Assembly (NCBI GenBank): GCA_964592785.1
Contig: CAZQHU010000003.1
Location: 3,901-67,900 of the forward strand
DNA: 64,000 nucleotides
DNA from: an uncultured Gammaproteobacteria bacterium
Lineage (GTDB): Bacteria; Patescibacteriota; Patescibacteriia; Magasanikbacterales; UBA922
Direction: 5' to 3'
Part shown: one piece after another, positions 25,335 to 43,906 of the stretch
Layout: every line of letters begins with the position of its first letter
Numbering within the stretch: the first letter of the stretch is position 1
Translations under genes and position numbers: made by a program
The notes under the pieces: model-generated
What the model was told of the DNA's origin: nothing
The model's input: the letters and a program-made list of their open reading frames with translations, nothing else
The model's database searches: none

Positions 25335-25601
25335 ATGTACATGGGCATGACGTTCACATTTCCAAAGGAAGGTGTAGAGGATATGTTGACGGCCTTGCGG
25401 ACGTTACGGGGAGTCACCCAGGTGATGGTGCAGGAACCGTACATACCTGTACACCCAACGATCTTTGTCCTTGTCAAGGTGGAAAAAGGGCAAGAATCTG
25501 AAATGCAACGCTATTTCTCAGCTCTTCTCTCGGCCACATGTGGCCGAGATATCCACGACCTGCGTTTCTTCAAAGTCCATGTCTACCCCAATCAGGGGTG
25601 A
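25335..25601 (+). CDS. GC-rich small ORF of 88 aa (cassette c)
   Basis: AAGGAGG lies 6 nt upstream of ATG 25335. The region is about 50% GC. It is followed by the conserved 45-nt 3' module and a terminator. Confidence 0.5.
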   Translation: MYMGMTFTFPKEGVEDMLTALRTLRGVTQVMVQEPYIPVHPTIFVLVKVEKGQESEMQRYFSALLSATCGRDIHDLRFFKVHVYPNQG

Positions 25602-25677
25602 CCTATCTTCGACTGGGTACACCAATCGCACTTTTCCAACTTCGTTGGAGCACCTGAACCTGGAGGATTCAGGGTGA

Positions 25678-25745
25678 CTCAAGTGTTTATAAGTATTTTG
25701 TAAATAGTTGAGAATAAAAAATCCCGATTATATCGGGATTTTACT
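25678..25745 (+). repeat. Conserved cassette 3' module, copy A (caagtgtttataagtattttgtaaatagttgagaataaaaaat plus terminator hairpin)
   Basis: Near-identical to 35240-35306 and 35848-35925. The hairpin sequences differ but the structure is conserved (cccgattatatcggg). Confidence 0.8.
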
Positions 25746-25758
25746 TTATAAACTTAGT

Positions 25759-27546
25759 TTACACCTCAATCACCACTGGGAGAACCATCGGACGCTTTTC
25801 AGTTTTGCTAAATAAAAATTGTCCAACTTTATCGCGAATATTATTTTTTATCTGGTTGGTATCAGCCCAGCTCATAGGATCAGACTCGATCACCATCTTC
25901 TTTACTTTGTGACGAAGATCTTCTATTAGTTGTTTATTATCTTTCAAGAAAATAAAACCTCGAGAAATAATATCTGGATTTTGAATCAGTTTGCCGGTCT
26001 TACTATCTATAGTAGCAATCACCACCACCATACCGTCTTCAGCCAGAACTTGACGATCGCGAAGCACTACATTTTGAGTATCAGAAACTCCCAAACCATC
26101 TACAAACACATAGTTGGATGGCACTTTTTTATCCAGCATCCGCGCGCCAAACTCACCCACTTCGATGATTGAACCATTGTCTGGCACAAAAATCTTATTG
26201 GCATCAAAACCATTTCGAATTGCCAAATTTCTCGCTTCTTTGAGAAAATAGTGATTGGCATAAACGGGGATAAAATAGGTAGGCCGAATTTGTTTGATCA
26301 TTTCCACAATATCTTCGCGGGTAGCATGACCAGAAACATGCACGTCCATGATCTCACCGTGGATCACATTGTCACACTGACGATAAATATTGTCTTTGAG
26401 ACGTTGAATACTACGCTCATTACCAGGAATAATCGAAGAAGAAAAAATCACGGTATCATTTTTGCGCAAACGAATCTGCTTGTGTTCACCAGTAACAATC
26501 CGCACCAAAACTGCGTTTTCTTCACCTTGAGCGCCAGTACAGATAACCACGATTTGCTTGTCAGGATAGTCATCCACTTTTTTGATATCAATTAACAAAC
26601 CTTTGGGTATATTGATATAGCCAAGTTCTTTGGCAATCTCAATATTCATCTTCATAGAGTAGCCATCGAGCGCCACTTTCTTACCCAGTTTGTCTGCCGC
26701 TTCCAAAACCCATTTGATTCTTTCTATTTGCGAAGAAAAAGTGCCAATGATCACCCGCCCAGGAGCACTGTTCAAAATATTTTGTAAATTTTTGTACATT
26801 TCTTCATAGCTACCAGTATGACGATCATTTAGGGAACCCAAACTCTCAAGCATGAGCACTGTGGGTTTATTTAATTTTTGTAATTGAGAATAATTCAAAG
26901 TCGGCTGACCATTCTTGTCACGTTCCATTGTCCAATCGCCCGGATGAATCACTGTGCCCGAAGGAGTTTCAATGATCACTCCTACTGCATCCATGATCGA
27001 ATGTTCAACTTGAAAAAATTTAATTGTAAATTTACCTAGTTGGATACGATCGCCCACGCTTTTGATAAGAATACTCTTCAAACTCTTGGACATGCCTTTT
27101 TTATAATCTTCCAGCTTATGCTTGATAAGCGCCAAAGTCAGGTTACGGCCTACTACCAGAGGATTACCCAACTTTTCCAGTAAAATAGGGGCCGCCCCAA
27201 TGTGATCCAGATGACCATGAGAAAAAACTACTCCGCGAATATTTTTTTCTTTACCTTGTAAATATTTAGTATTAGGAATGATGTAATCAATCCCGGGCAT
27301 GTCTTCCTCAGGAAATTGAATTCCCATGTCCAAAATAACTATATCATTCTCATATTCAAACATCGTCATATTACGCCCCACTTCTTCACAACCACCAAGG
27401 GGGATGATTCTCAAAACTCCTGGGGCACTACCCTTTTCTTCTGGCGTTAAACGTTTGAATGTTGAAAAACCCGGCTTCTTGTGAGGGTGCTTACTACCGC
27501 CAAAACGCCGCTGGCGTCGTGGCTGTGTTTTTTCTTGTGCTATCAT
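25759..27546 (-). CDS. rnj: Ribonuclease J (beta-CASP metallo-beta-lactamase RNase)
   Basis: HGHLDHIG motif in an MBL/beta-CASP/RMMBL architecture, with a basic N-terminal tail. Confidence 0.9.
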   Translation of the reverse strand: MIAQEKTQPRRQRRFGGSKHPHKKPGFSTFKRLTPEEKGSAPGVLRIIPLGGCEEVGRNMTMFEYENDIVILDMGIQFPEEDMPGIDYIIPNTKYLQGKEKNIRGVVFSHGHLDHIGAAPILLEKLGNPLVVGRNLTLALIKHKLEDYKKGMSKSLKSILIKSVGDRIQLGKFTIKFFQVEHSIMDAVGVIIETPSGTVIHPGDWTMERDKNGQPTLNYSQLQKLNKPTVLMLESLGSLNDRHTGSYEEMYKNLQNILNSAPGRVIIGTFSSQIERIKWVLEAADKLGKKVALDGYSMKMNIEIAKELGYINIPKGLLIDIKKVDDYPDKQIVVICTGAQGEENAVLVRIVTGEHKQIRLRKNDTVIFSSSIIPGNERSIQRLKDNIYRQCDNVIHGEIMDVHVSGHATREDIVEMIKQIRPTYFIPVYANHYFLKEARNLAIRNGFDANKIFVPDNGSIIEVGEFGARMLDKKVPSNYVFVDGLGVSDTQNVVLRDRQVLAEDGMVVVIATIDSKTGKLIQNPDIISRGFIFLKDNKQLIEDLRHKVKKMVIESDPMSWADTNQIKNNIRDKVGQFLFSKTEKRPMVLPVVIEV

Positions 27547-27590
27547 AAAATATTTTATTTTTATTTAAATTAAAAAGAAGAAAAAATTTG

Positions 27591-27674
27591 TACCGCGAGA
27601 GAGACTTGAACTCTCATGGCCTTGCGGCCGCTGACACCTGAAGCCAGTGCGTCTACCAATTTCGCCATCGCGGC
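27591..27674 (-). tRNA. tRNA-Leu (anticodon CAG), type II with a long variable arm
   Basis: Minus strand: GCCGCGA-TG-GCGAAATTGGTAGACGC-A-CTGGC-TTCAGGT-GTCAG-CGGCCGCAAGGCCAT-GAGAG-TTCAAGT-CTCTC-TCGCGGT-A. The acceptor, D, anticodon and T stems all pair. The anticodon loop TTCAGGT gives CAG. Confidence 0.85.
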
Positions 27675-27731
27675 TAAGATTATAAATTTCATTTACCCGC
27701 CAAAGCTTTAGCGACGACGGGCCACAAAAGG

Positions 27732-29729
27732 CTATTTCCCAAAATTCCATTGACCGGCAGTTTTGAGATACCAAGAAGTAATGTCAGCAAACCTGTCAGC
27801 TGGCTGTGCAATGCGAGTGACATCCATACCTTTTATGCTGTCGGATAAAGCATAGGTATAAGTCGGAGTGTAGAGAAAAATCGCTGGCAATTCGCTTATC
27901 AAAGTTTCTTGAAATTTTTTATAAAGTTCATTTTTTTCCAACTCATCCATGGTTTCCCGAGCTTTTTGTAAAATAGTGTCAACATTGCGATTGACATAGC
28001 CGGCCAAATTCAAACCCGGATAATCCACTTGGCTAGAATGCCAAAAAGGAAACTGATCCGGATCACTGCCTACTATTTCACCATATAATAAAATATCATA
28101 ATTTCTGGTTCGCAAAACTTCTTTGGTAAAATCCCGAGCTGAAACATAACGCACATTGGCTTTGACACCAATGCCCTGCCAAAAACCAGCCAAGAGCCCG
28201 GCCGCCTGCTTGTACTCTTCTGTACCCACGGTCACCAAATTTACTTCCAAAATTTTTCCTTCTTTATTACGACGATAAAAAGTTTGAGCTTGATTCAATT
28301 CAGCTTCCACTTGAGTTTTAATCTCTTGTCTCACTAAATCTTCCGTGCTTGAGGCCATCTCCCCACTTCCTTGTTCTGGAGTAGTAGTGGCTGTTTCAGG
28401 ATTATTTTTTCGCCATTCTTCAAAAAGTTTCTTTTCCATTTCGATCTGATAGTCACTGGCTGAAATACGTGGCCAGTTTTTATCCAAAAGATTATTAGCC
28501 TCATCCAAATTGTAATTTATTTTACCCAAATTTTCGTCATAAGCAGGAAAACCCGGCAAAACTGGACTATGAATTACCTGCCCTTCACCATTCAAGGCCT
28601 CACGCAAAATTCTATCTTTATCCACTGCCTGGGCCAAAGCCAAACGAACATCCTTGTCTTTCAAAACTTCATTGTTGCGCTGATTGAAAAATAAAGCTGT
28701 ATACTGAGGTAACTGTAAAGTTCGCAAAGCCACATGTTTACGTTCCACCCGTTCACGCAAATTTTTGGGTACAAAACTCAAACTCTGAACTTTGCCTTCT
28801 CTCATGGCCTGCACAGCCCCTGTCTCTCCTTCATAGGCAGAATAAAATTGGAAAATAAATTCTTCAATAAAAGCTGACTGGCGATAAAAACGTTCAAATC
28901 TTTGCAATTCATAGGTATAGATCTTGCCACTGGAATCTTTGGAAAACTTTTTAAACTGAAAAGGTCCGGTGCCAACTGGCTGAATATTGGCTTGAGCCAA
29001 ACGCATTTGTTCAGGAGGAACATTGAACCAAACATGCTCTGGCAAAATACCCACTGTCAAAGACGAAAGAAATGAAGCATAAACTTCGGGGAGTCTAAAA
29101 ACTACAGTATATTCATCTGGTACTTCCACCTCAACTCCTTGAAAACCCAAATACAAAGGACTGGCCGCCAAAACATTTTGAATAGTTTCAACAGTAAATA
29201 ATACATCATTGGCCGTAAAACGCTCCCCATCATGCCAATAAATGTCCTGGCGTAAAACAAAGGTGTAGGTTTTTTTATCATCACTTAAACTATATTTAAC
29301 TGCCAAATCTGGCAACAAACGATTTTTTTTGTCATAACGCATTAACCCTGAAAAAACCAAACGGCTAATATCCGCATCCACTTCATTACTGGCAGCAAAA
29401 ATCGGGTTGATGTACTGGGGACTGCCCACTACCGCCTCGGTCACGATACCACCAACAGTGGGGGCTTCAAGCCGATGAACTCTAACCCAATTGTAACCCG
29501 CCCAAAAAAAACCAAATAAAAAAACTAAAAAACTTATTTTCAAAATCCATTTTTCACGCGGACTCAAAATCCTGGCAATCTGACGCAACTGACAAAAACG
29601 AGGCCAATATCGACCCTGAACCTTTTGTAAAAGTTTGGTATCATAATGATGGGCAACAATCGGCCGTGGATTTTTCCTTTGTTTTTTAATTTTCCATTTG
29701 ACAAACTTGGATCGAAGTAACGATAACAT
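27732..29729 (-). CDS. ABC transporter substrate-binding protein, family 5 (OppA/DppA-like), with an N-terminal membrane anchor
   Basis: SBP_bac_5-like sequence of about 665 aa. Confidence 0.75.
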   Translation of the reverse strand: MLSLLRSKFVKWKIKKQRKNPRPIVAHHYDTKLLQKVQGRYWPRFCQLRQIARILSPREKWILKISFLVFLFGFFWAGYNWVRVHRLEAPTVGGIVTEAVVGSPQYINPIFAASNEVDADISRLVFSGLMRYDKKNRLLPDLAVKYSLSDDKKTYTFVLRQDIYWHDGERFTANDVLFTVETIQNVLAASPLYLGFQGVEVEVPDEYTVVFRLPEVYASFLSSLTVGILPEHVWFNVPPEQMRLAQANIQPVGTGPFQFKKFSKDSSGKIYTYELQRFERFYRQSAFIEEFIFQFYSAYEGETGAVQAMREGKVQSLSFVPKNLRERVERKHVALRTLQLPQYTALFFNQRNNEVLKDKDVRLALAQAVDKDRILREALNGEGQVIHSPVLPGFPAYDENLGKINYNLDEANNLLDKNWPRISASDYQIEMEKKLFEEWRKNNPETATTTPEQGSGEMASSTEDLVRQEIKTQVEAELNQAQTFYRRNKEGKILEVNLVTVGTEEYKQAAGLLAGFWQGIGVKANVRYVSARDFTKEVLRTRNYDILLYGEIVGSDPDQFPFWHSSQVDYPGLNLAGYVNRNVDTILQKARETMDELEKNELYKKFQETLISELPAIFLYTPTYTYALSDSIKGMDVTRIAQPADRFADITSWYLKTAGQWNFGK

Positions 29730-29780
29730 AATAATAACCTTTCCCCACTTGAGGAAAGTAGAAGAAAAACACTGCCTCTA

Positions 29781-29996
29781 TTATATCATTAAATTGGCAA
29801 TAGAAACAGCAAAGAAAAGAATAGAGATAACAATTGTCACTTGAAAAAGCACTTTATCAACTCCACGACGGCTATTATAAACACTGCCACCGCCTCCAAA
29901 GGCACTGCCCAAACCTGAACCACGCTGTTGTAAAAGCACGGCCACGGTCAATAAAATCGCTAAAACTGCCTGTAAAACTGTCAAAACTTTATCCAT
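29781..29996 (-). CDS. secG: Preprotein translocase subunit SecG
   Basis: 71 aa, two TM helices, Gly-rich loop (GSGLGSAFGGGGS). Confidence 0.75.
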   Translation of the reverse strand: MDKVLTVLQAVLAILLTVAVLLQQRGSGLGSAFGGGGSVYNSRRGVDKVLFQVTIVISILFFAVSIANLMI

Positions 29997-30106
29997 AGAT
30001 GTTATTATAATACCCCTCTATTCGAGGTTCTATTAACTGATTTATTTTTTAAGACAAAACAATTATACACCAAGGCCAAAAATAAATCAAGGGGGATACG
30101 CCCCTA

Positions 30107-30135
30107 TTGACAACTTAAGCCACTTTTGCTATAAT
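30107..30135 (+). promoter_or_regulatory. Consensus sigma70 promoter TTGACA-17-TATAAT for rpmE
   Basis: TTGACAacttaagccacttttgcTATAAT lies 25 nt upstream of the ATG. Confidence 0.65.
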
Positions 30136-30159
30136 CACCGCACTTTAATATAAATAAAT

Positions 30160-30438
30160 ATGAGAAAAGACATTCACCCAGAATATTTTGAAAATGCCAA
30201 AGTCACTTGCGCTTGTGGCAACAGTTTTGAAGTTGGCTCCACCAAAAAGGAAATTCGCGTTGAGCTCTGCAATGCCTGCCACCCTTTTTATACCGGCAAG
30301 CAAAAATTTGTAGATACTGCCCGTCGCGTGGAAAAATACAAAGAAAAAATGGATAAAGTTGGCCAAGCAGCTGCTGTACGCAAAGGCAAAAAAGTGAAAA
30401 AAGCTGTGACCAAAGCCAAGAAGACCACCAAAAAATAG
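30160..30438 (+). CDS. rpmE: 50S ribosomal protein L31 with a Lys-rich C-terminal extension
   Basis: MRKDIHPEY...CxxC...CxxC. Confidence 0.85.
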
Positions 30439-30514
30439 CTTTACAAAATAAAAGACAGACTTGGAATTTTCCGGTCTGTTTTTATTTATTTTTTAAACTG
30501 GTATACTTAAATTT

Positions 30515-31573
30515 ATGAATAATAAATACAAGCAAATCAAAGAAAAATATTTAATACTCGAAAAACAACTACAAGACCCAGCTGTGCTTAATGATACACA
30601 AAAATTAAAAAAAACTTCCCAAGAATATGATGATCTAAAAAATACTTATGAAAAAATAGCTATTTTGGAAAATCTTGAAAGAAATCTTGGCGAAGCTGAA
30701 GTCATTGCCAATGACGAAAACAACGAAGAATTGAGACAGCTGGCAGAAATTGAAGTGGAAGAATTGAAAACTAAAAAACAAGAGCTGGAAAAAGAGTTAG
30801 AAGAACTTACTCGTCCTCAAGATCCATTGGATAAAAAAAATGTTATTATAGAAATTCGTGCTGGCGCTGGTGGTGATGAATCGGCTCTCTTTGCTGGTGA
30901 TCTCATGCGTATGTATCTCAAATATGGAGAAGGTAAAGATTGGAAAGCCAGTCTCATTAGTGAAAATCAAATCGGTATTGGCGGTTACAAAGAAGTCATT
31001 TTTTCTTTATCAGGAAAAAATGTTTATCGGGATATGAAATATGAAATGGGTGTGCATCGCGTACAAAGAGTGCCGGAAACTGAAAAATCTGGACGCATCC
31101 ACACTTCCACTGCTTCGGTGGTAGTGCTTCCTGAGATTGATGAGATTGAATTCAAAATCGATCCCAAGGATCTACGCATTGACACTTTCATGGCTGGCGG
31201 ACATGGCGGACAAAGCGTCAATACTACTTATTCAGCAGTCCGCATTACCCATATTCCTACCGGCCTCGTCACTCAATCACAGGATGAAAGATCTCAACTT
31301 CAAAATAAATTAAAAGCCATGAATGTGATGCGCGCCCGACTCTACGAAATGGAGAGAGAAAAGCAAACCGCGGAAATTGATGCCAAACGCAAAAGCCAAA
31401 TCGGCACTGGGGATCGTAGCGAAAAAATCCGCACTTACAACTATCCCCAAGATCGCATCACTGACCATCGCATCCACGAAAGCTGGAATAATATCGGAAC
31501 CATACTAAACGGAAACTTGAATCCAATAATTGATGCACTGAGAAAGGTTGACTATGAAAGACTTGATAGTTAA
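30515..31573 (+). CDS. prfA: Peptide chain release factor 1
   Basis: GGQ motif ([12 protein letters not shown]) and a PxT-type tripeptide region (PET). Confidence 0.9.
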
Positions 31574-31641
31574 AAAGTTCATCAAGTTCATAAAGTCTTT
31601 AAAGTCACCAACTTTATAAACTTTATAACTTTACAAACTTT

Positions 31642-33099
31642 ATGAACTGGTTCAAAAAATATTACCCTCTTCTTATCATTATTCTACTTGGCCTAATACT
31701 CCGTCTTTTTGTAATAATTAAGTATGGTTCATTCTGGGATGACGAAATGTTCAGCTTTGTTTTTAGTCAAAAATCCTGGACAGAAAGTTTTGTTTATTGG
31801 CTCTATGAAACCAACCCGCCTCTGCACTTGTTGTTTTTGAAAATTTGGTTTTATTTTTTACCGGCTAGCGAATTTTTCGCCAGATTACCCAGTCTCTTAT
31901 TTGCTCTCGCCACCATACCTCTCGTCTATTTACTGGGAAAAAATTGGCAAGGAAAAATGACCGGCTATATCACCGCTTTTTATCTAGCTCTTCATCCTTA
32001 CCATATCTTTTGGTCAGCTACTGCCAGGACTTATACCCTAACAATTTTTTTAACTACCGGCGCAGTTTATTTTTTTTATAAAATATTTTTTCTGGAAGAA
32101 AAAAATAGAAAAAATTATTTGGGTCTGGCCATTTTCAACCTACTCTCACTATTATCACACTTATCCGCTAGCTCAATCATACTCACACAAATTTTGTTAT
32201 TGCTCTACAAAAAAACAAATTTCAAACTCTGGTGGCAGATAAATATTACCCCTCTAATTCTCGCTGGCTCTTGGCTAATCTCTTCGCTTTGGTTGAAAAT
32301 GTCTAATCTAAATAAATCGTGGTTTTTCAATTTGAATCATGATCTAGATACATTTCTCACTCCTCTATCTAATATTTTCCTCGGCGTCTACCCACCAAAA
32401 ATGACTTTACTTTTCATTATTCCCCTACTAATTATTTTGTTTATTTTTCTCAGTAAAAAAATTAAAGAAAAAGCAGAAAAAACTTTTGTCATCTTGGCTA
32501 TCGCTCTCCTACCGATGTTTATTTCTTTTTTCTTAAATCTCTGGCATATCAAATTTTTCCTAGTCAGTTTGCCTTTTTGGCTCTTATTGGTAGCTGGAGC
32601 TTTTGCAGAAGTTTTGAAAAACAAAAAATTAATTTTTATAGCCTTGGGATTATTTTGTAGTAGTGGACTTATTTTTTTATGGTCTTTCTTGCCACTGACA
32701 AACTGGCAACCACTGCAAAAATATCTCACTACAAATTTTAATCCAGCCAAAAAACAAGCTCTGGTTTATAACAACTACATATTGGACCCACAAATAGAAA
32801 AGTACTTGAAACCGCCACAAGAAAACATGCCTTTTGTAATAGAATCAGAAAAAAATTGGGAAGATTGGGCAGTAAAAAGAAATTATCTTTATATTAAATA
32901 CTCCCAAGAACAGCTAACAAATTGGCTATCAAAAAATAATTTATTTGCCAATCAAGAAATCTTTCTTATTCAGGGCGAATATGATTACATGACCAATTTA
33001 AATAAATTACTGGAAAAAAATAATTATATTTTAGAGCAACCTGCTTGGCGTTTGCCTATTCTCGGTCGTTATTATCTCTATCACTATGTCAAAAATTGA
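31642..33099 (+). CDS. GT39/GT83-family glycosyltransferase (ArnT/PMT-like), polytopic
   Basis: N-terminal DDE-containing loop, more than 10 TM helices, and the family architecture. Confidence 0.65.
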   Translation: MNWFKKYYPLLIIILLGLILRLFVIIKYGSFWDDEMFSFVFSQKSWTESFVYWLYETNPPLHLLFLKIWFYFLPASEFFARLPSLLFALATIPLVYLLGKNWQGKMTGYITAFYLALHPYHIFWSATARTYTLTIFLTTGAVYFFYKIFFLEEKNRKNYLGLAIFNLLSLLSHLSASSIILTQILLLLYKKTNFKLWWQINITPLILAGSWLISSLWLKMSNLNKSWFFNLNHDLDTFLTPLSNIFLGVYPPKMTLLFIIPLLIILFIFLSKKIKEKAEKTFVILAIALLPMFISFFLNLWHIKFFLVSLPFWLLLVAGAFAEVLKNKKLIFIALGLFCSSGLIFLWSFLPLTNWQPLQKYLTTNFNPAKKQALVYNNYILDPQIEKYLKPPQENMPFVIESEKNWEDWAVKRNYLYIKYSQEQLTNWLSKNNLFANQEIFLIQGEYDYMTNLNKLLEKNNYILEQPAWRLPILGRYYLYHYVKN

Positions 33100-34006
33100 T
33101 CAGCGTGAAATTGAGTTAATTAAAGCATTTGTGTTGAAAAAACCACGCGAATTTTTTATTGCCCACCCGGAGTACCAAGTTAGCAAGTTAGCAAGTGAAC
33201 AAGTGAATAAGTTGATTAAAAAACGTACTCGTGGTATTCCACTCGCTTATTTACTTGGCAAAAAAGAATTTTTTGGGTTGAATTTTACAGTAAATAAAAA
33301 TGTTTTGATTCCTCGCCCAGAGACAGAACTGATGGTAGAAAAAGTTTTACAAAAAATCAAGAATTCAAAAAACCAAGAAATTATTTTAATTGATATTGGA
33401 ACTGGTACTGGATGTATTCCCATTTCAATCATAAAAACAATTAACCCCACCCTACCCTCCCCTACAAGGGGAGGGAAAGGGAGAGGTTTCGCCGTCTTTG
33501 CCACGGACATCTCCCAACCAGCTTTGTCTGTCGCCAAAAAAAACGCCAAAAAACATAATGTAAAAATAAAATTCCTTCACGGCAACTTGCTTGAACCATT
33601 TCTCTGTCATCCTGAATTTATTTCAGGATCTTTCCCAAAATCAAACCTGCTAAAAAGTATATCTGGAGAAAAGATGCTGAAACAAGTTCAGCATGACATC
33701 ATCATCACCGCCAACCTCCCCTATCTTACACCTCAACAACTTAAACAAGAACCCTCAATAAAACACGAACCTCACCTCGCCCTCGTCGCTGGCAAAGATG
33801 GACTAAAATACTACCGAGAACTTCTTAAACAAATTAATATATTGACTTCGGACTACAGACTACAGACTACAGTTTTTTGCGAAATAAATCCGGAACAAAC
33901 AAAAAATATAAAACTCCTTACTAAAAAAATTCTTCCCCAAGCCAAAATAACCCTCCACCAAGATCTGGCTGGAAAAAATAGAGTGGTGGAGATAATTCCC
34001 CTCTAG
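33086..34006 (+). CDS. prmC: Release factor glutamine N5-methyltransferase PrmC/HemK; contains two in-frame palindromic-element insertions
   Basis: SAM motif IDIGTGTG and NLPY (a variant of NPPY). Classic prfA...prmC linkage. Confidence 0.85.
   Translation: MSKIDQREIELIKAFVLKKPREFFIAHPEYQVSKLASEQVNKLIKKRTRGIPLAYLLGKKEFFGLNFTVNKNVLIPRPETELMVEKVLQKIKNSKNQEIILIDIGTGTGCIPISIIKTINPTLPSPTRGGKGRGFAVFATDISQPALSVAKKNAKKHNVKIKFLHGNLLEPFLCHPEFISGSFPKSNLLKSISGEKMLKQVQHDIIITANLPYLTPQQLKQEPSIKHEPHLALVAGKDGLKYYRELLKQINILTSDYRLQTTVFCEINPEQTKNIKLLTKKILPQAKITLHQDLAGKNRVVEIIPL
33606..33698. repeat. Two-hairpin MITE-like element, copy 2; 93 nt, inserted in frame in prmC
   Basis: It encodes LCHPEFISGSFPKSNLLKSISGEKMLKQVQHD between the SAM-binding region and the NLPY motif. 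Confidence 0.75.
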
Positions 34007-34150
34007 AGAGGGGTGCCCGCTCAAGCGGGTGGGGTGTGTTACAATAGCAAAAATTAAAAACAACGGTCACACACCCCGTCTGCCTCCCGCCTGCCATGCC
34101 TGGCACTGGCGGGCAGGGCGAAGGCATACACCCCTCTCCAGAGGGGATCG
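34001..34150. mobile_element. Cargo-less TIR pair (MITE) of the DUF559-element family
   Basis: CCCCTCTAGAGAGGGGTG-hairpin-GGGGTGTGTTAC, an 18-nt spacer, then CGGTCACACACCCC-long hairpin-CACCCCTCTCCAGAGGGG. Confidence 0.6.
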
Positions 34151-34164
34151 CCTCTTGACAAACC

Positions 34165-34193
34165 CATAAAAATAAGCTATAATGCCCTGTTCT
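34165..34193 (+). promoter_or_regulatory. Consensus promoter TTGACA-17-TATAAT of cassette d
   Basis: TTGACAaacccataaaaataagcTATAAT. Confidence 0.65.
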
Positions 34194-34393
34194 TTGAAAA
34201 TTTTCAAACGGCTTATAAATTAGCCAATTTTTGACTAATGTCTAGGCCGTTTGAGGCTTAGGGAACAGAAAAACTACTGTTGAAGGAGTGGCCTGTATAG
34301 GGGGCAACTACCGAGACCTTTTTGAAGGTCATTACAGCAAGTTTCTGTTTTCCCGACTTCCTGTTCCGCCCGAGGCGGACAAGAGGAGGTACC

Positions 34394-35161
34394 ATGCCCA
34401 GTTTCTCCAACAAGTTCCTGAAAGTGGAGAGCGACCGCTCTCCGGTGGGACAGCGGACCCGTCTGCTGGTCCTCTGGTCATACTTCATGGCCATTCTCCT
34501 GGGTGGCCTGTGGCTGATGCCCAGCTCGATGGCAGTGGCGAACCTGATCCTGATGGGTTTGAACACCCTCATCTTCGCCCGCTGGGTGTCCAAGAATGGG
34601 GTGGATTACTACCCCAAGAAGGAAAACAGAAAATACCCCCCGTTTCTTCCGAGATGGGGAGAGGGTACGCGTCGGTACTACTTCGTACCGGCGATCATGA
34701 CCAGCACGATCTGGTCGGCAGTGTTTTTCGGCTGGAACACCTGGTTCAGCGAAAACTTGTTGTGGATTGTTTTGGGTGTTATGTGCATCCTTCTCGCCAT
34801 CTTTCTGGTCCCCTACCTGTGGGGTAAGAGGGCATCCAGGAAAAGCAAGAGATTCATGGCCCAGCAAGACGAGGAGAGACGAAAGCAGAAGGAGATCGAC
34901 GAGCTGATTCAAGCGGCGATGGGAAGGAAGGAACTCGAGATTTACGAGAGGGAGAAAGAGTTCCTTCGTGACCTGGCAGTAATCATCGCCAACTTCCACT
35001 ACGAAAAGGGAAGAAAGCCCTCGAAGAGGGACGCCGAACTCCGGCAGAAACTCGAGGCGATCCTCGAGTACTTCGTCGGCCCGAGCGAGGCCGAGGCCAT
35101 GGTCGCCGAGGAGCTCTACCGCCTCACTCGTGAGGCGAAGAAGGCCACGGTGGCCACTTAG
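34394..35161 (+). CDS. GC-rich (about 57%) membrane protein of 255 aa: about 4 TM helices plus a charged coiled-coil C-terminus (cassette d)
   Basis: GAGGAGG lies 5 nt upstream of ATG 34394. The overlapping track ORFs 34258-34999 on other frames are GC artefacts. gttcgttcttt follows the stop. Confidence 0.6.
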   Translation: MPSFSNKFLKVESDRSPVGQRTRLLVLWSYFMAILLGGLWLMPSSMAVANLILMGLNTLIFARWVSKNGVDYYPKKENRKYPPFLPRWGEGTRRYYFVPAIMTSTIWSAVFFGWNTWFSENLLWIVLGVMCILLAIFLVPYLWGKRASRKSKRFMAQQDEERRKQKEIDELIQAAMGRKELEIYEREKEFLRDLAVIIANFHYEKGRKPSKRDAELRQKLEAILEYFVGPSEAEAMVAEELYRLTREAKKATVAT

Positions 35162-35180
35162 ACACTGTTCGTTCTTTAGA

Positions 35181-35232
35181 GGGGCGCCGACCGGTTGAGT
35201 TGAGATTTACTTCTCCTCCCGGTCGGCGCCCC
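35181..35232 (+). repeat. Conserved 3' hairpin of cassette d (14-bp stem GGGGCGCCGACCGG / CCGGTCGGCGCCCC)
   Basis: Cassette e carries GTCCGACCGG/CCGGTCGGAC, a compensatory variant, and shares the loop start ttgagtt. Confidence 0.7.
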
Positions 35233-35239
35233 GATGTAA

Positions 35240-35306
35240 TCAAGTGTTTGTAAAATATTTTGTAAATAGTTGAAAATAAAAAATCCGCTGATAAGGCGGT
35301 TTTTTT
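35240..35306 (+). repeat. Conserved cassette 3' module, copy B, plus terminator
   Basis: tcaagtgtttgtaaaatattttgtaaatagttgaaaataaaaaat-CCGCTGataaGGCGG-ttttttt. Confidence 0.8.
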
Positions 35307-35341
35307 GTTTGTCATCCCTTTTGTAAAAGGTAAGATGGGTA

Positions 35342-35370
35342 TTGACAAAAACACAAAAATAAGCCAATAT
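35342..35370 (+). promoter_or_regulatory. Promoter TTGACA-17-CAATAT of cassette e
   Basis: Shares the spacer motif aaaataagc with the promoter at 34165. Confidence 0.55.
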
Positions 35371-35408
35371 TGTTATAGGAAATTCGTCATCTACAGGAGG
35401 TTTTCTCA

Positions 35409-35747
35409 ATGGCAAATAATTATCACTTGTCTGGTCCTTTTTCCTTCGGTATCCTATCTCCAAAGAACAAGGAGGAAAAGTACAGTATTTTCTTCCTGTC
35501 AATTCTTAGGGGCGACGAAGTGCACCGAGCCTATCTCTGCTACTCCAAGCAACAAGTTCGAAACGTGTTTGACCAGTTCAGACCTTGTATTGCACCAGAC
35601 GAACTCAAGATAGCGGAAGATTTCGTAACCCATAACCAGCACGTACCCGAATTCTCGAACCACAAGATGAGGGAATACAACGGACGAGAGGCCGAAGTGT
35701 TCACCGCGCTCATGTCCACTGGGCACTACGCAAGCATTGCCAACTGA
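35409..35747 (+). CDS. GC-rich small protein of 112 aa (cassette e)
   Basis: AGGAGG lies 8 nt upstream of the ATG. A tttcgttctttag motif and a hairpin follow the stop. Confidence 0.55.
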   Translation: MANNYHLSGPFSFGILSPKNKEEKYSIFFLSILRGDEVHRAYLCYSKQQVRNVFDQFRPCIAPDELKIAEDFVTHNQHVPEFSNHKMREYNGREAEVFTALMSTGHYASIAN

Positions 35748-35792
35748 CCATCCGCCCGAGTCAGGGCAAACCAAATTGTTTCGTTCTTTAGC

Positions 35793-35841
35793 GGGTCCGA
35801 CCGGTTGAGTTAATGCCTCCTTGGCATTCTCCCGGTCGGAC
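35793..35841 (+). repeat. Conserved 3' hairpin of cassette e
   Basis: GTCCGACCGG-ttgagtt...-CCGGTCGGAC. Confidence 0.65.
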
Positions 35842-35847
35842 AATCCA

Positions 35848-35925
35848 ATCAAATGTTTGTAAAAATTATTTTGTAAATAGTTGAGAATAAAAAATCACTT
35901 AATAATCTAAGTGATTTTTTATTTT
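35848..35925 (+). repeat. Conserved cassette 3' module, copy C, plus terminator
   Basis: atcaaatgtttgtaaaaattattttgtaaatagttgagaataaaaaat-CACTTaataatctAAGTG-tttttt. Confidence 0.8.
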
Positions 35926-36172
35926 TTAGAACGACAATTGGCTGGGGTTTGGGGCCGCCAACCTGTTTGAGCTAGAAGTGCTTGATGGATATGTATATTA
36001 TTAGTATGGCGAGTCTTGGCGGCCCCAAAACTTTTTTGTTACTTTTTTGGTTACAAAAAAGTAAAGAGTGATTATTTTGTCATAAACTTCGGCAAACTCT
36101 CCTGGCCTACGGGCCACCCTCTCTTGGAAAGAGAGGGATGACAAACATCCACCTATATTTTTATTTTTTGTT

Positions 36173-36577
36173 TCACTGTCTCCTCCACCACAACCCAACA
36201 CAAAACAACACTGCGCCGGTAAGACCATTTGCCAAATCTGCCATAGTGTCTAGTGCTCCTGCTTGATAACGCCAGCCTTGAAAAAGTAAATCATGATAAA
36301 ATTCATATACTTCCCAAACGACAGCAGCAAAACAAGCAAAACCAACCAATAAAAAATACTTAAGCCAAACAGGTTTGAATTCTGCTTTTATATATTTCAA
36401 AAATAAATAAGCGGTCCAAGCAGCCACCAGTCCTCCAATAATATGAAATGGCAAATCTACCCAAGGAAAATTTTCTACAAAAAAATCTTTAAAAAATCTG
36501 AACAAAAATTCATTGAGCAAAAACACCACCCACATTGGTGAGGTGATACGAAAAAATGTTTTTAAAAATTTATTCAT
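36173..36577 (-). CDS. Small polytopic membrane protein (VanZ-like?)
   Basis: ORF track. Start trimmed to MNKF to limit overlap with the upstream gene. Confidence 0.45.
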   Translation of the reverse strand: MNKFLKTFFRITSPMWVVFLLNEFLFRFFKDFFVENFPWVDLPFHIIGGLVAAWTAYLFLKYIKAEFKPVWLKYFLLVGFACFAAVVWEVYEFYHDLLFQGWRYQAGALDTMADLANGLTGAVLFCVGLWWRRQ

Positions 36578-37664
36578 AATTAATTTTGGTATTTTGATTT
36601 GCCACTTCAATCCAAATCTTACCTGGATTAAAAATTATTTCTTCACCATTGACCCCATAAAAACGCGTTCGACCTACCCTATCTTTCTTCACCCAAGTAC
36701 CAGTATAATCCAAACCATTTTGAAAAACTACTGCCTCGCCAGAACCAATAGTTTCCATACCCAGTCTCCCAATACTATCCAAAATTTCAGTTTCAACCTT
36801 TTGGACTATCACCACATCGGCCGCGATCGACATACCATCGGCATCCACATGCGGACGACCCATCTGATAACGTTCATATTTATTGGTGGAAGTATTGTAT
36901 TTCCACACTGCTTCATACACTGGCGGAAGAAATGAGACAGTTAGACTACCAACAATTTCGGAATTTCCTAATTTCTCAATTTCTTCTTTTGTAGTTGTCA
37001 CAAATTTCCAGCTTTTATATTCATCATTCAAATAATTTTCTGAATAACTATTCAAGGCTCTACTACCCAACTCGCTAGAAGTATAAACATTATGCGGAGC
37101 GCTTCTTTCCTGCGCTCGCCAATAATATTGCCCATTATAAAATTCATTTAGATCATTTATTTTATATTTTTTAATCAAATCCAAAGCCTCTGGTGAACCA
37201 CCGACATGCATATAAACCGGTGTACCATATTCTGAAAGCCAATCTAGATAATAAGACCGGGCACTACGCACTGGGCCGATCTTTCCAACTTCCGAGTCAG
37301 CTGGATAAATCGCCAAAAATCTAGTATAGTTGGCTTCTACCGGCGCTTCATAAACAACACTGGCTTTGGATAAGCCCGCCTGCGGACGTGCTTCACTATG
37401 GTTTTCTATCATCACCGCCAAAAGCCGAGGATTCATTTGATCGGACTCTTCCACACAAACTCCATCCAAAAAACGACGAAATTCGCAATCTTTTTGTTCT
37501 TCCAAATTTGACAAATCCACCAAGGCAATTCTATCAATCTTATCAGTGAAATATTGCCAACCAAACCAGACCAATAAAAATAGTCCTACCAAAAAAACCA
37601 ACCCTGCCAAAAGATAGACAAATTGTGCTTGAGTAAATTTAAATTTTTTGAAATTATTCTTCAT
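36570..37664 (-). CDS. DUF3048-domain lipoprotein-like protein (YerB-like)
   Basis: VMIENHSEARPQAGLSKASVVYEAPVE block characteristic of the DUF3048 N-terminal domain, plus an N-terminal TM segment. Confidence 0.65.
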   Translation of the reverse strand: MKNNFKKFKFTQAQFVYLLAGLVFLVGLFLLVWFGWQYFTDKIDRIALVDLSNLEEQKDCEFRRFLDGVCVEESDQMNPRLLAVMIENHSEARPQAGLSKASVVYEAPVEANYTRFLAIYPADSEVGKIGPVRSARSYYLDWLSEYGTPVYMHVGGSPEALDLIKKYKINDLNEFYNGQYYWRAQERSAPHNVYTSSELGSRALNSYSENYLNDEYKSWKFVTTTKEEIEKLGNSEIVGSLTVSFLPPVYEAVWKYNTSTNKYERYQMGRPHVDADGMSIAADVVIVQKVETEILDSIGRLGMETIGSGEAVVFQNGLDYTGTWVKKDRVGRTRFYGVNGEEIIFNPGKIWIEVANQNTKINYE

Positions 37665-37700
37665 AACTTTGACATCATACTACAAAAAAATCAAAAAATC

Positions 37701-37733
37701 AAAAACCGCCCCGCAATATGCGGGGCTGTTTTT
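37701..37733. terminator. Bidirectional terminator
   Basis: aaaaaccGCCCCGCaatatGCGGGGCtgttttt. Confidence 0.6.
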
Positions 37734-37806
37734 GACTGTCCCCGACTGTTCGGTGCGACAGTCGGGATCTCCTTGCTTGTTTGCCCTGAGACGGGCAGAG
37801 AGAACC

Positions 37807-38319
37807 CTAGTTCCAAAGACGCTGAAGCCCTGTGGCTTCCTGTCGCACGATTCCCAAAGCGACAACAGCATCCTTGATGTAGACAGCGATGAGCTGAGAC
37901 AATTCCATCCAAAAGATCCCGGAGTGAATCATGCTGTATTGCATGTTCTTCTTTTCCCTCAGGAATCCTTGGCTCAGCCAATCGGGAAAGTCTATTCCGT
38001 ACAAACTCTCGTCAACAATGAACGAAAGAAACACTGCGAAATAGTCCTCCAAGAGAACGAAACGATCCCTTGGAAAAAACAAATCTGTCAGTTCACGAAT
38101 CCTCTGCTGTTGAACTTGCGGTGCCCGAACAATATCCTTGGGATGACTGGGGAAACCCCAAGTCTGCAAAAGAGGCGCAATCACTCGATGTCCGGGAAAT
38201 TCCAAAAAGGCACGACCCTCCCTTACAAAACCTCCGAAAATCAAACGCCCGGTGACTTGGATTTGTAACTCCCTGTCTCTGTCAGTAACCAAAGAATAAT
38301 CCACCATTTCTCCCTCCAT
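37807..38319 (-). CDS. GC-richer (about 50%) hypothetical protein of 170 aa (cassette f); the overlapping plus-strand 206-aa ORF is the alternative
   Basis: A TTGACA-17-TAAGCT promoter (38344-38372) lies immediately upstream on the minus strand. A stem-loop and the terminator at 37701-37733 lie downstream. Confidence 0.4.
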   Translation of the reverse strand: MEGEMVDYSLVTDRDRELQIQVTGRLIFGGFVREGRAFLEFPGHRVIAPLLQTWGFPSHPKDIVRAPQVQQQRIRELTDLFFPRDRFVLLEDYFAVFLSFIVDESLYGIDFPDWLSQGFLREKKNMQYSMIHSGIFWMELSQLIAVYIKDAVVALGIVRQEATGLQRLWN

Positions 38320-38382
38320 CTTGCTAACAAGCTGTCAGAGACAAGCTTAACAAAAGCATTCTTGACTGTCAATAATTACACA

Positions 38383-38416
38383 TAAAAAAATACCCTCTGG
38401 ATTTTGGGGGTATTTT
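38383..38416 (-). terminator. rplY terminator
   Basis: Minus strand: a hairpin TACCC...GGGTA followed by TTTTTTT. Confidence 0.5.
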
Positions 38417-38431
38417 TTCAATAAAGTTTTA

Positions 38432-39103
38432 TTAATCTTTCTTTTCTTCAGTTTTCTCGCCTTCACCTTCAGTTTCTTCTTTTCCTTTCTTCTCCACTTC
38501 GATCTGGTCAATAGCTGGAGCAGCTGCTTCTTCCATAGCCTTGAGTTCATCCTCACTAAGTGGAGCAGCCACTTTGACAATAACTTGTCCAGCATCCTCA
38601 TTGGCAATAATACCAGCTGGCAATGACAAATCTTTCACATGAATAACTTTTTCAAAAGTATCCAAAACACCCAAATCAATATCAATTTCATTGACCAAAT
38701 CTTTTGGCAAACATTTGATATCTAGAGTATCTTGAGCTTTTACCAAAGTACCACCAAGGGCTTTGACAGCTGGGGCTTCGCCTACAAAATTCAATTTCAC
38801 TGTAGCTTCCATTTCTTTATTCATATTGATCTGACGAAAATCTACATGAGTGACTACGCCCTTGACTGGATCATGTTGTAAATCCTGAATCAACACCTTG
38901 AGCGGAGCACCGCCATCTATACTTAAATCAATAATACTAGCTTCACCAGCTTCATTATAAAGTTTCAAAAACTCATTATAATCAAAAGCCAAAGAAACCG
39001 GTTCCAAACCTGGTCCATAGAGCACACCGGGCAATTGACTTTGGGCACGCAAATCGGCCGCCTGTCCGGCAGTTCTCTTTTTAACAGAAAAACTAAGAGT
39101 CAT
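38432..39103 (-). CDS. rplY: 50S ribosomal protein L25 / general stress protein Ctc
   Basis: Two-domain L25/Ctc sequence with an acidic tail. Confidence 0.85.
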   Translation of the reverse strand: MTLSFSVKKRTAGQAADLRAQSQLPGVLYGPGLEPVSLAFDYNEFLKLYNEAGEASIIDLSIDGGAPLKVLIQDLQHDPVKGVVTHVDFRQINMNKEMEATVKLNFVGEAPAVKALGGTLVKAQDTLDIKCLPKDLVNEIDIDLGVLDTFEKVIHVKDLSLPAGIIANEDAGQVIVKVAAPLSEDELKAMEEAAAPAIDQIEVEKKGKEETEGEGEKTEEKKD

Positions 39104-39106
39104 AAA

Positions 39107-39433
39107 TTAATATTTAAAATTAAATTGATTAGTTTTTAAAAATTGATGAAAATTAAGCAACTCTTCTTCACTCACCGGTCCCCTAGCCAACAACCTCTTG
39201 GCGTCGGCAAAATCCAAATCTGTAAGCATACCAACTGAACTGGCTCCAAAAGGTGTGGAAACCATCAATGCCACCACTGCATGCCGACAACTGCCACAAA
39301 ACAAATGCAATAAACTGGCGCTTTCCTTTTCTTCCAAAACTCGGGACTGCTCCTTGGTATATTGATTTTGACAAACCGGACAATGTTGCAAAGAACGAAG
39401 ATTGTCGGGAAAAGAATTTTCTAATTTAGACAT
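39107..39433 (-). CDS. Zinc-ribbon hypothetical protein (CPVC...CGSC)
   Basis: ORF track. Confidence 0.45.
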   Translation of the reverse strand: MSKLENSFPDNLRSLQHCPVCQNQYTKEQSRVLEEKESASLLHLFCGSCRHAVVALMVSTPFGASSVGMLTDLDFADAKRLLARGPVSEEELLNFHQFLKTNQFNFKY

Positions 39434-39497
39434 AAAATTATTCTGTCCCCGCGTTAACCTGCGGTGGACATTACTCTACCATTATTATAAAAAAAAG

Positions 39498-40622
39498 TCA
39501 AGACTCATACAACTCGTGTTTGGCAATAGTGCCACTTTGCGCCACACTTTCCACCATACCCAACAATAATAAGTTGATAATCAACGAAGAGCCACCATAA
39601 CTCAAAAATGGCAAAGTCACCCCAACTACTGGCATGAAACCCATGGCTGCTCCCAAATTGATGACAATTTGTGTAAGAAATAATAACAAAACCCCGGATA
39701 CCAAAAAAGCAGAAAAATCATTTTTGGCCCGCCGAATAATAGTGATCAAACGCCATAAAAATAAAAAATATAATAAAAGCACCAAACCACCACCCACAAA
39801 CCCCAACTCTTCAGCAATCACTGAAAAAATAAAATCTGTTTGTGCCTCTGGTAAAAAATGTAGTTGTGATTGGGAACCAAAACCCAAACCGCGCCCAACA
39901 ATCTGTCCAGAGCCAATGGCAATCATTGATTGAGTCACATTGTAGCCCGAACCCAAAGGATCCAATTCCGGATTGATAAAAGTCAAAATTCTGCCTCGCT
40001 GATAATCTTGAAAAAGAAAAAACCAAGCAAAAATCACCATCAATACCGCCAAAATTACCAAAGCAAAAATATAACGTTTTTTAGTTCCTGAAAGACATAA
40101 AATTCCAAACCAAATGGCGCTCAAAACAATGGCTGAACCCAGATCTGGTTGCAATAAAATCAAACCAGCCAAAAATAAAGTAACCAAAGCACTGGTAAAA
40201 ACAAACTGCCATTTTTCAAAACGTCGACCAAATCTCTCCAACCACCAGGCAAGCATAATAATAAGACCAACTTTGGCAAATTCAGCTGGTTGAAAAGAAA
40301 AACCAAAAAAATGAAACCAGCCGCGAGTGCCACGAATTGTTTCCCCAAAAATTAAAACTCCCAACAAAAGTAAAAATGCCAACAAATAAAAAAACTTGGC
40401 CTTTTGACGATAAAAACTTACATGAAAAAAACTGGCAAACAAAAAAAACACCAGACCAATGACAACCGCACTGCTCTGGGTGGAAAAATAATCAAGTTCT
40501 GCACCTCGGGATAAATCTACACTGTAAATCGCTACCAAACTTATGGCCACCAAACCCGCCACCAATAATACTAAAATCCAATCAAAATTACGCGCCAATT
40601 GTTTGAATCTAGACAAATCCAT
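39498..40622 (-). CDS. ftsW: SEDS-family peptidoglycan glycosyltransferase (FtsW/RodA)
   Basis: About 10 TM helices and conserved SEDS blocks. Start could alternatively be at 40667. Confidence 0.8.
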   Translation of the reverse strand: MDLSRFKQLARNFDWILVLLVAGLVAISLVAIYSVDLSRGAELDYFSTQSSAVVIGLVFFLFASFFHVSFYRQKAKFFYLLAFLLLLGVLIFGETIRGTRGWFHFFGFSFQPAEFAKVGLIIMLAWWLERFGRRFEKWQFVFTSALVTLFLAGLILLQPDLGSAIVLSAIWFGILCLSGTKKRYIFALVILAVLMVIFAWFFLFQDYQRGRILTFINPELDPLGSGYNVTQSMIAIGSGQIVGRGLGFGSQSQLHFLPEAQTDFIFSVIAEELGFVGGGLVLLLYFLFLWRLITIIRRAKNDFSAFLVSGVLLLFLTQIVINLGAAMGFMPVVGVTLPFLSYGGSSLIINLLLLGMVESVAQSGTIAKHELYES

Positions 40623-40629
40623 AAAAACC

Positions 40630-41620: not shown

Positions 41621-43906
<2,286 letters not shown>

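Follow-up and report, generated by a model that had tools for sequence, protein, structure and literature searches.

A TGTC-tagged palindromic repeat lies in frame within prmC of a member of the Magasanikbacterales

How does a gene for an essential protein come to hold a repeated palindrome within its reading frame, and does the protein carry the resulting peptide? These questions are raised by a stretch of 64,000 nucleotides (nt) of contig CAZQHU010000003.1 (Patescibacteriota, Magasanikbacterales), referred to below as the window, whose numbering is used for all coordinates. In this window prmC, the gene for the release-factor glutamine N5-methyltransferase, contains a 94-nt element made of two hairpins with outward-facing TGTC tags. 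In-frame palindromic repeats are usually presented as a Rickettsia curiosity, and the small genomes of the candidate phyla radiation (CPR) are generally regarded as streamlined. We refer to the element in prmC and its copies as family A.

The palindromic element and its host gene

The element consists of TGTCATCCTGAAtttatTTCAGGATC, a 42-nt spacer and GATGCTGAAacaagTTCAGCATGACA (Table 1). Both stems are 8 bp long without a mismatch, and the loop of the right hairpin is ACAAG on the plus strand, or CTTGT when read from its tag. We call the element a heterodimer because its two stems differ at one position (CC versus GC). The full 94 nt, whose ends are inverted repeats of each other, folds as a single long hairpin (-30.6 kcal/mol, z=-5.5). 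A first-pass annotation, made from the sequence alone, had described a frame-preserving insertion in prmC at 33606-33698 (93 nt). This proved correct except that we place the left boundary at 33605, since the T at this position completes the terminal inverted repeat TGTCAT...ATGACA. The element covers the codons for C174 to D204 (31 residues) and the first base of I205; the earlier count of 31 residues was right, and the peptide string given with it was not, as its 32 letters include L173, outside the element. Only one of the six frames of the 94 nt is free of stop codons, namely the prmC frame. Rfam at gathering thresholds reported only one tRNA in the window, and a permissive Rfam scan of the element gave sub-threshold long-hairpin miRNA look-alikes and no known RNA family. 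A full-text literature search with the hairpin sequence retrieved only unrelated primers, and the X-padded insert peptide matched only two short, probably spurious open reading frames (ORFs) in a large protein database.

The host ORF scored 218 bits against the NCBIfam equivalog for PrmC, TIGR03534 (cut-off 199.1), and PrmC_N was the Pfam domain found in it. For annotation it matters that inserts of this kind lower domain scores and inflate the number of "lineage-specific insertions" in CPR proteins. An AlphaFold model of the window PrmC had a mean predicted confidence (pLDDT) of 88 and a pTM of 0.86, and matched the HemK/PrmC crystal structures 1NV8 and 2B3T with TM scores of 0.80-0.85 (Foldseek). 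The catalytic core and the NLPY motif (residues 210-213, window 33713-33724) are intact in the model, and the insert ends six residues before this motif. Motif IV thus reads NLPY and not the canonical NPPY, a form that is invariant in 120 of 120 Patescibacteria orthologues aligned; the residues invariant across all 120 are retained in the window PrmC. The insert was modelled as an unstructured, low-confidence connector between helix 170-179 and strand 204-209. The pLDDT fell below 50 only at residues 127-132 and 186-198, both of which are palindrome-encoded and lack regular secondary structure. From this model the insert appears to form a floppy 31-residue surface loop, and we infer that a PrmC predicted to be active tolerates the element as a disordered loop.

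We compared the window PrmC with the 120 aligned orthologues, all of which come from Candidatus Magasanikbacteria and other Patescibacteria. The insert residues were present in two of the 120, the window protein itself and P0005 (the CHPEFISGS...QVQH peptide), and family A was missing from the three nearest relatives (88%, 71% and 65% identity). The pattern named beforehand as the mark of an ancestral loop, namely relatives sharing the residues without palindromy in their DNA, was not seen in any of the 120. Between the conserved GNLLxP and the IIITANLPY strand the window PrmC has 35 residues, compared with an orthologue median of 15, and where it has 34 residues T. maritima HemK has 9. The first-pass statement that the element adds 31 residues therefore holds for the insert but not as a simple addition, since the native loop was replaced; the net gain is ~20 residues relative to the median of the orthologues and ~25 relative to T. 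maritima HemK. This segment is the second of three length-variable connectors in the 120 orthologues (S1, S2 and S3; window residues ~117-138, 172-206 and 251-265). At the same loop, the locus of the nearest relative (L001; PrmC 88% identical) has a different palindrome, CCCCCCTTTTTAAAGGGGGG-CAGGGGGGAT, which encodes PPFLKGGRGDFG and is of a kind found intergenically at window 17954-17990.

The DNA locus of P0005 (L002; PrmC 60% identical) allowed the element to be compared with its coding surroundings. The first 30 element bases (33605-33634) are identical at 29 positions and both hairpins are kept almost base for base, whereas the coding flanks show ~50-90% identity per 30-nt block, mostly ~70%. 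The right arm of L002 is split by a nested 21-nt insert. The near-identity of the element against flanks of ~70%, together with covariation of the stems across genomes (see below), points to selection on DNA rather than on protein. Judged from these alignments, the prmC segment is derived and not ancestral, and its palindromy is kept at the DNA level rather than the protein level. An ancestral functional loop that is palindromic by chance, for example a lineage-specific loop for release-factor binding or regulation, would explain why the frame is kept and why the same peptide stands at the same position in a 60%-identical orthologue. Such a loop would have to be missing from 118 of the 120 orthologues, the three nearest included, and to have near-identical intergenic copies in the window and the same hairpin in unrelated genes and phyla; its DNA is also conserved above the protein level and the segment is predicted to be disordered. 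We consider an ancestral loop extremely improbable.

Copies, distribution and class of the element

The window holds three dimers and hence six arms; a nested hairpin interrupts one arm. All three copies are outward-tag dimers with unlike stems, and TGTCAT can be read directly in all six arms. With up to three mismatches allowed, the window has three matches to each 26-mer arm and shuffled sequences have none, and a regular-expression census found five arms compared with 0.3 tagged hairpins expected in shuffles. The census yields five arms and not six because it misses the interrupted arm at 51795, which only a profile detects: a profile of 178 foreign hairpins returned the five intact arms at E<=1e-7 and the interrupted arm at E=0.0024. 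The intergenic copies that the first-pass annotation had noted after groEL and in the dut-thyA spacer were thus confirmed (Table 1). The decayed copy it had placed at 19533-19556 scored at noise level with the same profile (E=1.8), and we no longer count it. We also entertained the idea that the 42-nt spacer in prmC is the original PrmC linker trapped between two separately inserted hairpins. This was judged unlikely, since the spacers of the dut-thyA copy and of L002 look, by eye, length-matched and partly sequence-matched.

Two observations concern the dut-thyA copy. A possible thyA start codon, the ATG at 51915, is supplied by the right tag of the element (CATGACA); an alternative start lies at 51927, and in the longer form the match to Pfam starts at residue 6. 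In addition, three short-read contigs from different samples (L124, L125 and L126) all end at the last base of this copy. Assemblies break at these palindromes, which may fragment metagenome-assembled genomes (MAGs) of CPR bacteria. An empty site was not found for either intergenic copy; the dut-thyA copy is also present on related contigs, which stop at it.

A hairpin scan with TGTCATSCTGAANNNNNTTCAGSATC, using one genome per species, returned at least 120 loci; the taxa and counts that follow are those among the loci listed. Matches within the CPR came from Gracili-, Sacchari-, Nomura-, Roizman-, Kerfeld-, Magasanik-, Peri-, Davies- and Moranbacteria and from Kazan. Those from elsewhere came from Bacteroidota, Ignavibacteria, Spirochaetes, Nitrospirota, Elusimicrobia, Melainabacteria, several proteobacterial classes and a Rickettsia endosymbiont. 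A hairpin pair of the family A type was also seen on a 3.8-kb contig binned as Nanoarchaeota, a DPANN archaeon (L020, JAHIPG010000372). Since bins are uncertain for contigs this short, presence across domains is only a lead. Among 214 foreign hairpins, GTC was preceded by T in 188, by C in 20 and by A in 6, and the commonest loops were CTTGT (84), CTTGA (35) and TTTAT (25). The stems vary by compensatory changes (CCTGAA/TTCAGG, GCTGAA/TTCAGC, CCCGAA/TTCGGG, TCTGAA/TTCAGA and TCCGAA/TTCGGA) with tag and loop constant, and the covarying hairpins include ones not selected by the scan pattern. NTS-type TCCCGC stems with 4-nt loops co-occur in these loci. Outward-tag dimers numbered 44, two of which are the window's own, with spacers of 4-102 nt, and nearly all were heterodimers.

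Of 137 hairpins, nine are located well within long ORFs, and in-frame hairpins or dimers were found in five further host genes (Table 1). The screen detects open frames only, so the frequency of lethal insertions is not measured by it. These cases bear on whether the insert in prmC is translated. Excision or bypass of the segment at the mRNA level, as for an intervening sequence, would be compatible with the strong RNA hairpin (-30.6 kcal/mol); alternatively, prmC could be decaying into a pseudogene. Yet prmC has an uninterrupted ORF whose score exceeds the equivalog cut-off for PrmC and in which the invariant residues are retained, and independent in-frame, stop-free cases exist in five other housekeeping genes, with the proviso that the screen sees only open frames. 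A requirement for read-through would predict that the sole open frame of the element is the one in use, which excision of the segment would leave unexplained. We regard an untranslated insert or a decaying prmC as very unlikely.

Repeats of this layout have been described before. Di Nocera, De Gregorio & Rocco (2013, BMC Genomics 14:522; PMC3733652) defined a superfamily of "CGTC-tagged REPs" (repetitive extragenic palindromes), which have an unpaired CGTC tag, often TGTC (CCTC is also allowed), A-T complementarity in the first two stem positions and a short tail with the consensus CCA; the stem is 8 bp in families 1 and 2 and the loop 5 nt in families 2-4. The units mostly form opposite-orientation pairs with spacers of 20-100 bp, and heterodimers predominate in CGTC-2 and CGTC-3. 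They lie mostly after ORFs, have no dedicated transposase, and some units or dimers are in frame within known genes (PMC3733652). Family A fits a CGTC-2-like CGTC/TGTC-tagged REP, the match being to the description in the text of that paper. The two share the tag, an 8-bp stem that starts with A-T complementary bases, a 5-nt loop, opposite-orientation pairs and heterodimers. They differ in that family A stems are A+T-rich (CCTGAA) and the tail is CTY, not CCA. Tails in the window are CTT or CTC, and foreign tails are CTC (64), CTA (39), CCA (37) or CTT (30), so that only the C is constant.

The first-pass annotation had likened the insertion to Rickettsia palindromic elements (RPEs). An in-frame repeat is indeed what the two have in common and the kinship is likely to be real, but it lies with the short REPs of the RPE-4/6 type and not with the classic RPE-1 of ~150 bp, whose size is unrelated. 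In R. conorii CGTC-1 corresponds to RPE-6 and CGTC-4 to RPE-4, and the superfamily also includes Neisseria dRS3/NTS (PMC3733652). The likeness to Rickettsia elements is therefore probably one of kinship, with the short RPEs. As in Rickettsia, family A consists of repeated in-frame palindromes in housekeeping genes that are read as extra peptide, and even the frames are shared: CH... arises from TGTCAT, and ...HD or ...ND runs into ATGAC (CHSRESGNP and DSRLRGND in R. conorii; CHPEFISGS and MLKQVQHD in family A). Further support comes from a complete two-hairpin family A dimer in the chromosome of a Rickettsia endosymbiont (L042). The host of the prmC element, by contrast, is a free-standing CPR lineage and not an intracellular alphaproteobacterium, and RPE-4/6 differ from family A in stem sequence and loop length. 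Nor are in-frame palindromes peculiar to Rickettsia. In-frame CGTC dimers of 20-40 aa are tabulated in a supplement for R. conorii, S. wittichii, R. palustris and E. litoralis, and in-frame dimers outside Rickettsia are documented in Sphingomonas, Rhodopseudomonas, Erythrobacter and Coxiella (PMC3733652). The remark that such elements had not been described for CPR bacteria agrees with our literature search, which found no such description.

Other small repeats resemble family A less closely. REPINs, built from GTAG-tagged REPs and mobilised by RAYT, share the inverted-REP doublet that folds into one long hairpin, the non-autonomous character and the lack of an evident target-site duplication. 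They differ in their tag (GTAG, not TGTC), and CGTC REPs have no known association with RAYT, a Y1 transposase. None was seen here, where no profile search for RAYT was made. [quoted passage not shown] In family A the terminal inverted repeats are TGTCATsCTGAA.../...TTCAGsATGACA, but the ends are themselves hairpins, the spacer is variable and there is no recognisable parent insertion sequence (IS). We found no transposase-bearing relative by which family A could be called a MITE, and no target-site duplication in the flanks of the three window copies or of the handful of foreign dimers displayed.

Table 1. Features of the window and in-frame family A elements at loci of other genomes (positions in window numbering)
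Feature	Position or locus	Strand	Description
prmC	33086-34006	+	Release-factor glutamine N5-methyltransferase; 306-codon ORF, host gene
Family A element	33605-33698	+	94 nt; two TGTC-tagged hairpins, tags outward; encodes PrmC C174-D204
Left hairpin	33605-33630	+	26 nt; tag TGTC, stem ATCCTGAA/TTCAGGAT, loop TTTAT, tail C; nhmmer E=5e-8
Spacer	33631-33672	+	42 nt; encodes lowest-confidence part of the loop (residues 186-198, pLDDT<50)
Right hairpin, inverted	33673-33698	-	26 nt; minus-strand tag TGTC at 33698-33695, stem ATGCTGAA/TTCAGCAT; nhmmer E=2.8e-9
Family A hairpin sequence			TGTCATCCTGAACTTGTTTCAGGATC
Predicted PrmC peptides spanning the insert junctions			QVQHDIIITANLPYLTPQQLK, FLHGNLLEPFLCHPEFISGSFPK
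Family A copy	9743-9810	+	Intergenic, 3 nt 3' of groEL stop (Pfam); spacer 16 nt
Family A copy	51795-51920	+	dut-thyA spacer; nested GC-rich hairpin splits left-hairpin loop
LigA	L023		Nomurabacteria; in-frame hairpin/dimer, host confirmed by Pfam
TsaD	L116		Daviesbacteria; in-frame hairpin/dimer, host confirmed by Pfam
FemAB-family	L095		Moranbacteria; in-frame hairpin/dimer, host confirmed by Pfam
Family-2 glycosyltransferase	L065		Roizmanbacteria; in-frame hairpin/dimer, host confirmed by Pfam
GltB	L045		Treponema; in-frame hairpin/dimer, host confirmed by Pfam
Family B GC-rich palindrome	33443-33486	+	CCCTCCCCTACAAGGGGAGGG at 33455-33475; in frame in prmC, encodes ~NPTLPSPTRGGKGRG, loop after motif I
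Family B inverted copy	4883-4918	-	In frame in rsmA/ksgA ORF 4662-5549 (minus); peptide PIPSLPYEGREK
Family C palindrome	33994-34042	+	Overlaps prmC 3' end; supplies last codons and TAG stop 34004-34006
Second family C end	34066-34150	+	Nested GC hairpin; 23 nt after first family C end
Third variable prmC site	33851-33872	+	Heptamer tandem (GACTACA)x3; L001 has (ACATTCC)x3 instead
prfA	30515-31573		Two genes upstream of prmC; Pfam

Origin of the prmC allele and a candidate nuclease

As a whole, the allele is best explained by a TGTC-tagged REP dimer, repeated DNA foreign to prmC, that is read through as a tolerated loop, and we hold this explanation with good confidence. The element would be repeated DNA that is probably mobile or spread by recombination, and not native prmC sequence. 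It would have entered the connector between strands beta-3 and beta-4 of the methyltransferase domain in its sole stop-free frame, replacing a short native linker, and ribosomes would read through it to give a 31-residue disordered loop that PrmC presumably tolerates. The connector would be one of three length-variable, junk-accepting PrmC loops in this lineage. A further and less certain step is that the hairpins, when extruded as single-stranded DNA (ssDNA), may be substrates of a small nuclease of the Ssn type, with a single GIY-YIG domain of the cd10448 type. Such an enzyme would explain both how the hairpins spread and why they are associated with the ends of recombination tracts.

The nuclease step is suggested by work in Neisseria. 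The dRS3/NTS repeat (CGTCATTCCCGCGMAVGCGGGAATCYRG), a CGTC-1 REP, is bound and cut by SsnA, a 94-aa GIY-YIG nuclease, only as ssDNA; ssnA homologues are typically flanked by such hairpins, and SsnA shortens recombining DNA at the repeats (PMC11893778, Nat Commun 2025, 16:2388). The NTS variant NTSvar (CGTCATACTCGGGN5CCCGAGTATC) shares with family A the layout [C/T]GTCAT-stem-loop-stem-ATC. One locus in our scan, from a MAG of the Flavobacteriaceae (L119, 2510-3100), holds a 100-aa single-domain GIY-YIG gene with family A hairpin pairs on both sides, an arrangement like NTS-ssnA-NTS. Its product matched Pfam GIY-YIG at E=2.9e-16, and the spacing of Y12, Y23 and E70 equals that of Y6, Y17 and E64 in SsnA. 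Among the 120 homologues listed of 3116, identity was 75-100% and every source name given was Flavobacteriaceae or Bacteroidetes; no GIY-YIG gene was present in the listed loci other than L119. This nuclease and the family A hairpin make a concrete candidate enzyme-substrate pair. That an Ssn-type nuclease acts on family A hairpins is, by these analogies, a tentative possibility and on balance doubtful.

Several results weigh against the explanation as a whole. With regard to the nuclease, the published SRM pattern (HGTCWYN(0-2)YYVSBRHN(0-5)WNVSBRGN(0-2)RNCYNB) matched none of the family A arms and had no match elsewhere in the window; as a control, the same expression matched both NTS and NTSvar, and the arms of family A fail because stem positions that require G+C are not satisfied by A+T-rich stems. 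No GIY-YIG gene was found in the 64-kb window, L001 or L002 by motif scan and tblastn, and the link to a nuclease comes from a single locus in another phylum. With regard to the insertion, the 94 nt are 3n+1 in length and would shift the frame if simply inserted, so that some flanking change must have accompanied the event; together with the loss of the native linker, this means that it was not a clean insertion. About 40 nt on each side of the element are diverged from L001, no pair of empty and filled sites at high identity was found, and only one assembly is known to have the window allele.

The comparison with L001 is informative in this respect. The two sequences are 99.4-99.8% identical over 24233-33588 and 38365-44329, and within prmC they are 100% identical up to 33545. 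The switch in identity lies ~45 nt upstream of the element, with a drop from 99.5% to ~67% inside those 45 nt. In the blocks flanking the element 20 of 30 and 18 of 26 positions agree; identity recovers to ~97% over 33725-33842 and falls to ~55% at S3. Downstream lies a strain-variable island (33987-38365; L001 9827-13885) between backbones that are 99.5-99.8% identical, with 99.8% again from 38365. Within the island, 34258-35161 is GC-rich and has long ORFs on either strand, none with a Pfam match; in L001 the island also has a single family A hairpin at 10045 that is missing from the window.

Diverged flanks of this kind fit transposition no better than they fit the import of short patches by recombination. 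Homologous recombination could have brought in a patch of ~200 nt from a diverged prmC allele in which the element was already present, with the element as a passenger or as a marker of the tract end. The loss of identity beside the element, its recovery at 33725-33842 and its renewed loss at S3 before the variable island are what such imports would leave, and P0005/L002 shows that alleles with family A at the same codon position circulate in related organisms. In Neisseria, dRS3/NTS repeats have been linked to locally raised diversity and SsnA to the truncation of recombining ssDNA (PMC11893778); like these repeats, family A adjoins locally diverged sequence. On the other hand, no donor was found, the window flanks being no closer to L002 (21 of 30 and 19 of 30) than the gene average, and import leaves the first entry of the element into any prmC unexplained. 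We give patch import close to even chances, much the same likelihood as de novo insertion in this strain. It can be reconciled with the read-through of a foreign REP dimer proposed above and does not exclude it.

A chimera joined at the repeat during assembly could also place a palindrome in prmC, all the more as related short-read contigs break exactly at the end of the dut-thyA copy and the window allele is present on one contig only. However, both junctions of the element pass in frame into prmC coding sequence, and the switch in identity to L001 lies upstream of the repeat rather than inside it. The same arrangement has moreover been assembled independently for P0005 in two other samples (L002 and L003). 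An artefact is in our judgement highly improbable.

What was already known is that CGTC REP dimers and RPE-4/6 lie in frame in housekeeping genes. What is new is the CPR host lineage, the wide distribution and an A+T-rich variant that the SRM motif overlooks, as well as three palindrome families on one essential gene and one locus in which the variant is linked to an Ssn-like nuclease. Elements of the same class act alike in CPR bacteria despite their supposed streamlining, and in prmC two palindrome families are in frame and a third provides the stop codon. These results bear on how new surface loops originate and on the biology of CGTC/NTS-type hairpins, for which Ssn as a candidate enzyme is only recent. 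One may go further and propose that TGTC-tagged AT-rich hairpins are pan-prokaryotic ssDNA elements (in CPR and possibly DPANN) serviced by Ssn, which in CPR genomes, like several unrelated palindrome families, recolonise the same few protein loops, replace one another there and set the ends of recombination tracts. We think this unlikely as it stands; if true, the elements would drive loop evolution in reduced CPR proteomes and would not be mere passengers.

Other palindromes and variable loops of prmC

Two further palindrome families occur at prmC (Table 1). At the site of family B, the alignment with T. maritima HemK has a gap of 14 residues, and the inverted copy makes rsmA/ksgA a second housekeeping methyltransferase gene with an in-frame GC-rich palindrome. 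The family C palindrome at the 3' end of prmC is 92% complementary to 17170-17218. The latter belongs to a pair of inverted family C ends of ~50 nt (16741-17218) that flank a gene for a DUF559 (Vsr-like) endonuclease (16791-17174, minus strand; Pfam E=8e-32), an arrangement like an IS-type cassette. The back-to-back family C ends after prmC look like a gene-less, MITE-like derivative of this cassette, and the corresponding place after prmC is taken in L002 by a DUF559 gene (8626-8988).

The connectors S1, S2 and S3 hold palindromes of several families or species-specific low-complexity repeats, and by their sequence the variable loops of PrmC behave as sinks for repeated DNA. The same low-complexity motif is often present in two loops of one PrmC (for example SSIFNLQSS in S2 and S3 of P0114), and such motifs resemble A+T-rich oligomer repeats 5' of genes in the window (for example 31585-31642 and 24798-24829). 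GC hairpins of the CCTGCC...GGCAGG type are nested in the left arm of the dut-thyA copy of family A (51806-51845), in the right end of family C (34079-34128) and in the right arm of L002, and loops of orthologues contain PAGRQ- or LPTGKAG-like peptides that suggest the same element. Insertions may prefer the loops of hairpins.

An intergenic cluster of short GC palindromes (CCCCCCTTAATAAAGGGGGG, CCTCCCTTTACTAAGGGAGG and CCCCCAACCTCTTAGTAAGAGGGGG) lies at 17900-18080, downstream of an unannotated ORF. In L001 and several other orthologues the prmC loop holds a palindrome of the CCCCCCTTAATAAAGGGGGG type, which gives PPLLKGG peptides. Finally, a lone CGTC-tagged hairpin at 24494-24520 (L001 262-288) has an NTS-like stem, CGTCATTCCCGCGTCGGCGGAA, with one mismatch and a 4-nt loop, and abuts a small Trp-repressor-like ORF, so that a CGTC-1-like unit coexists with family A.

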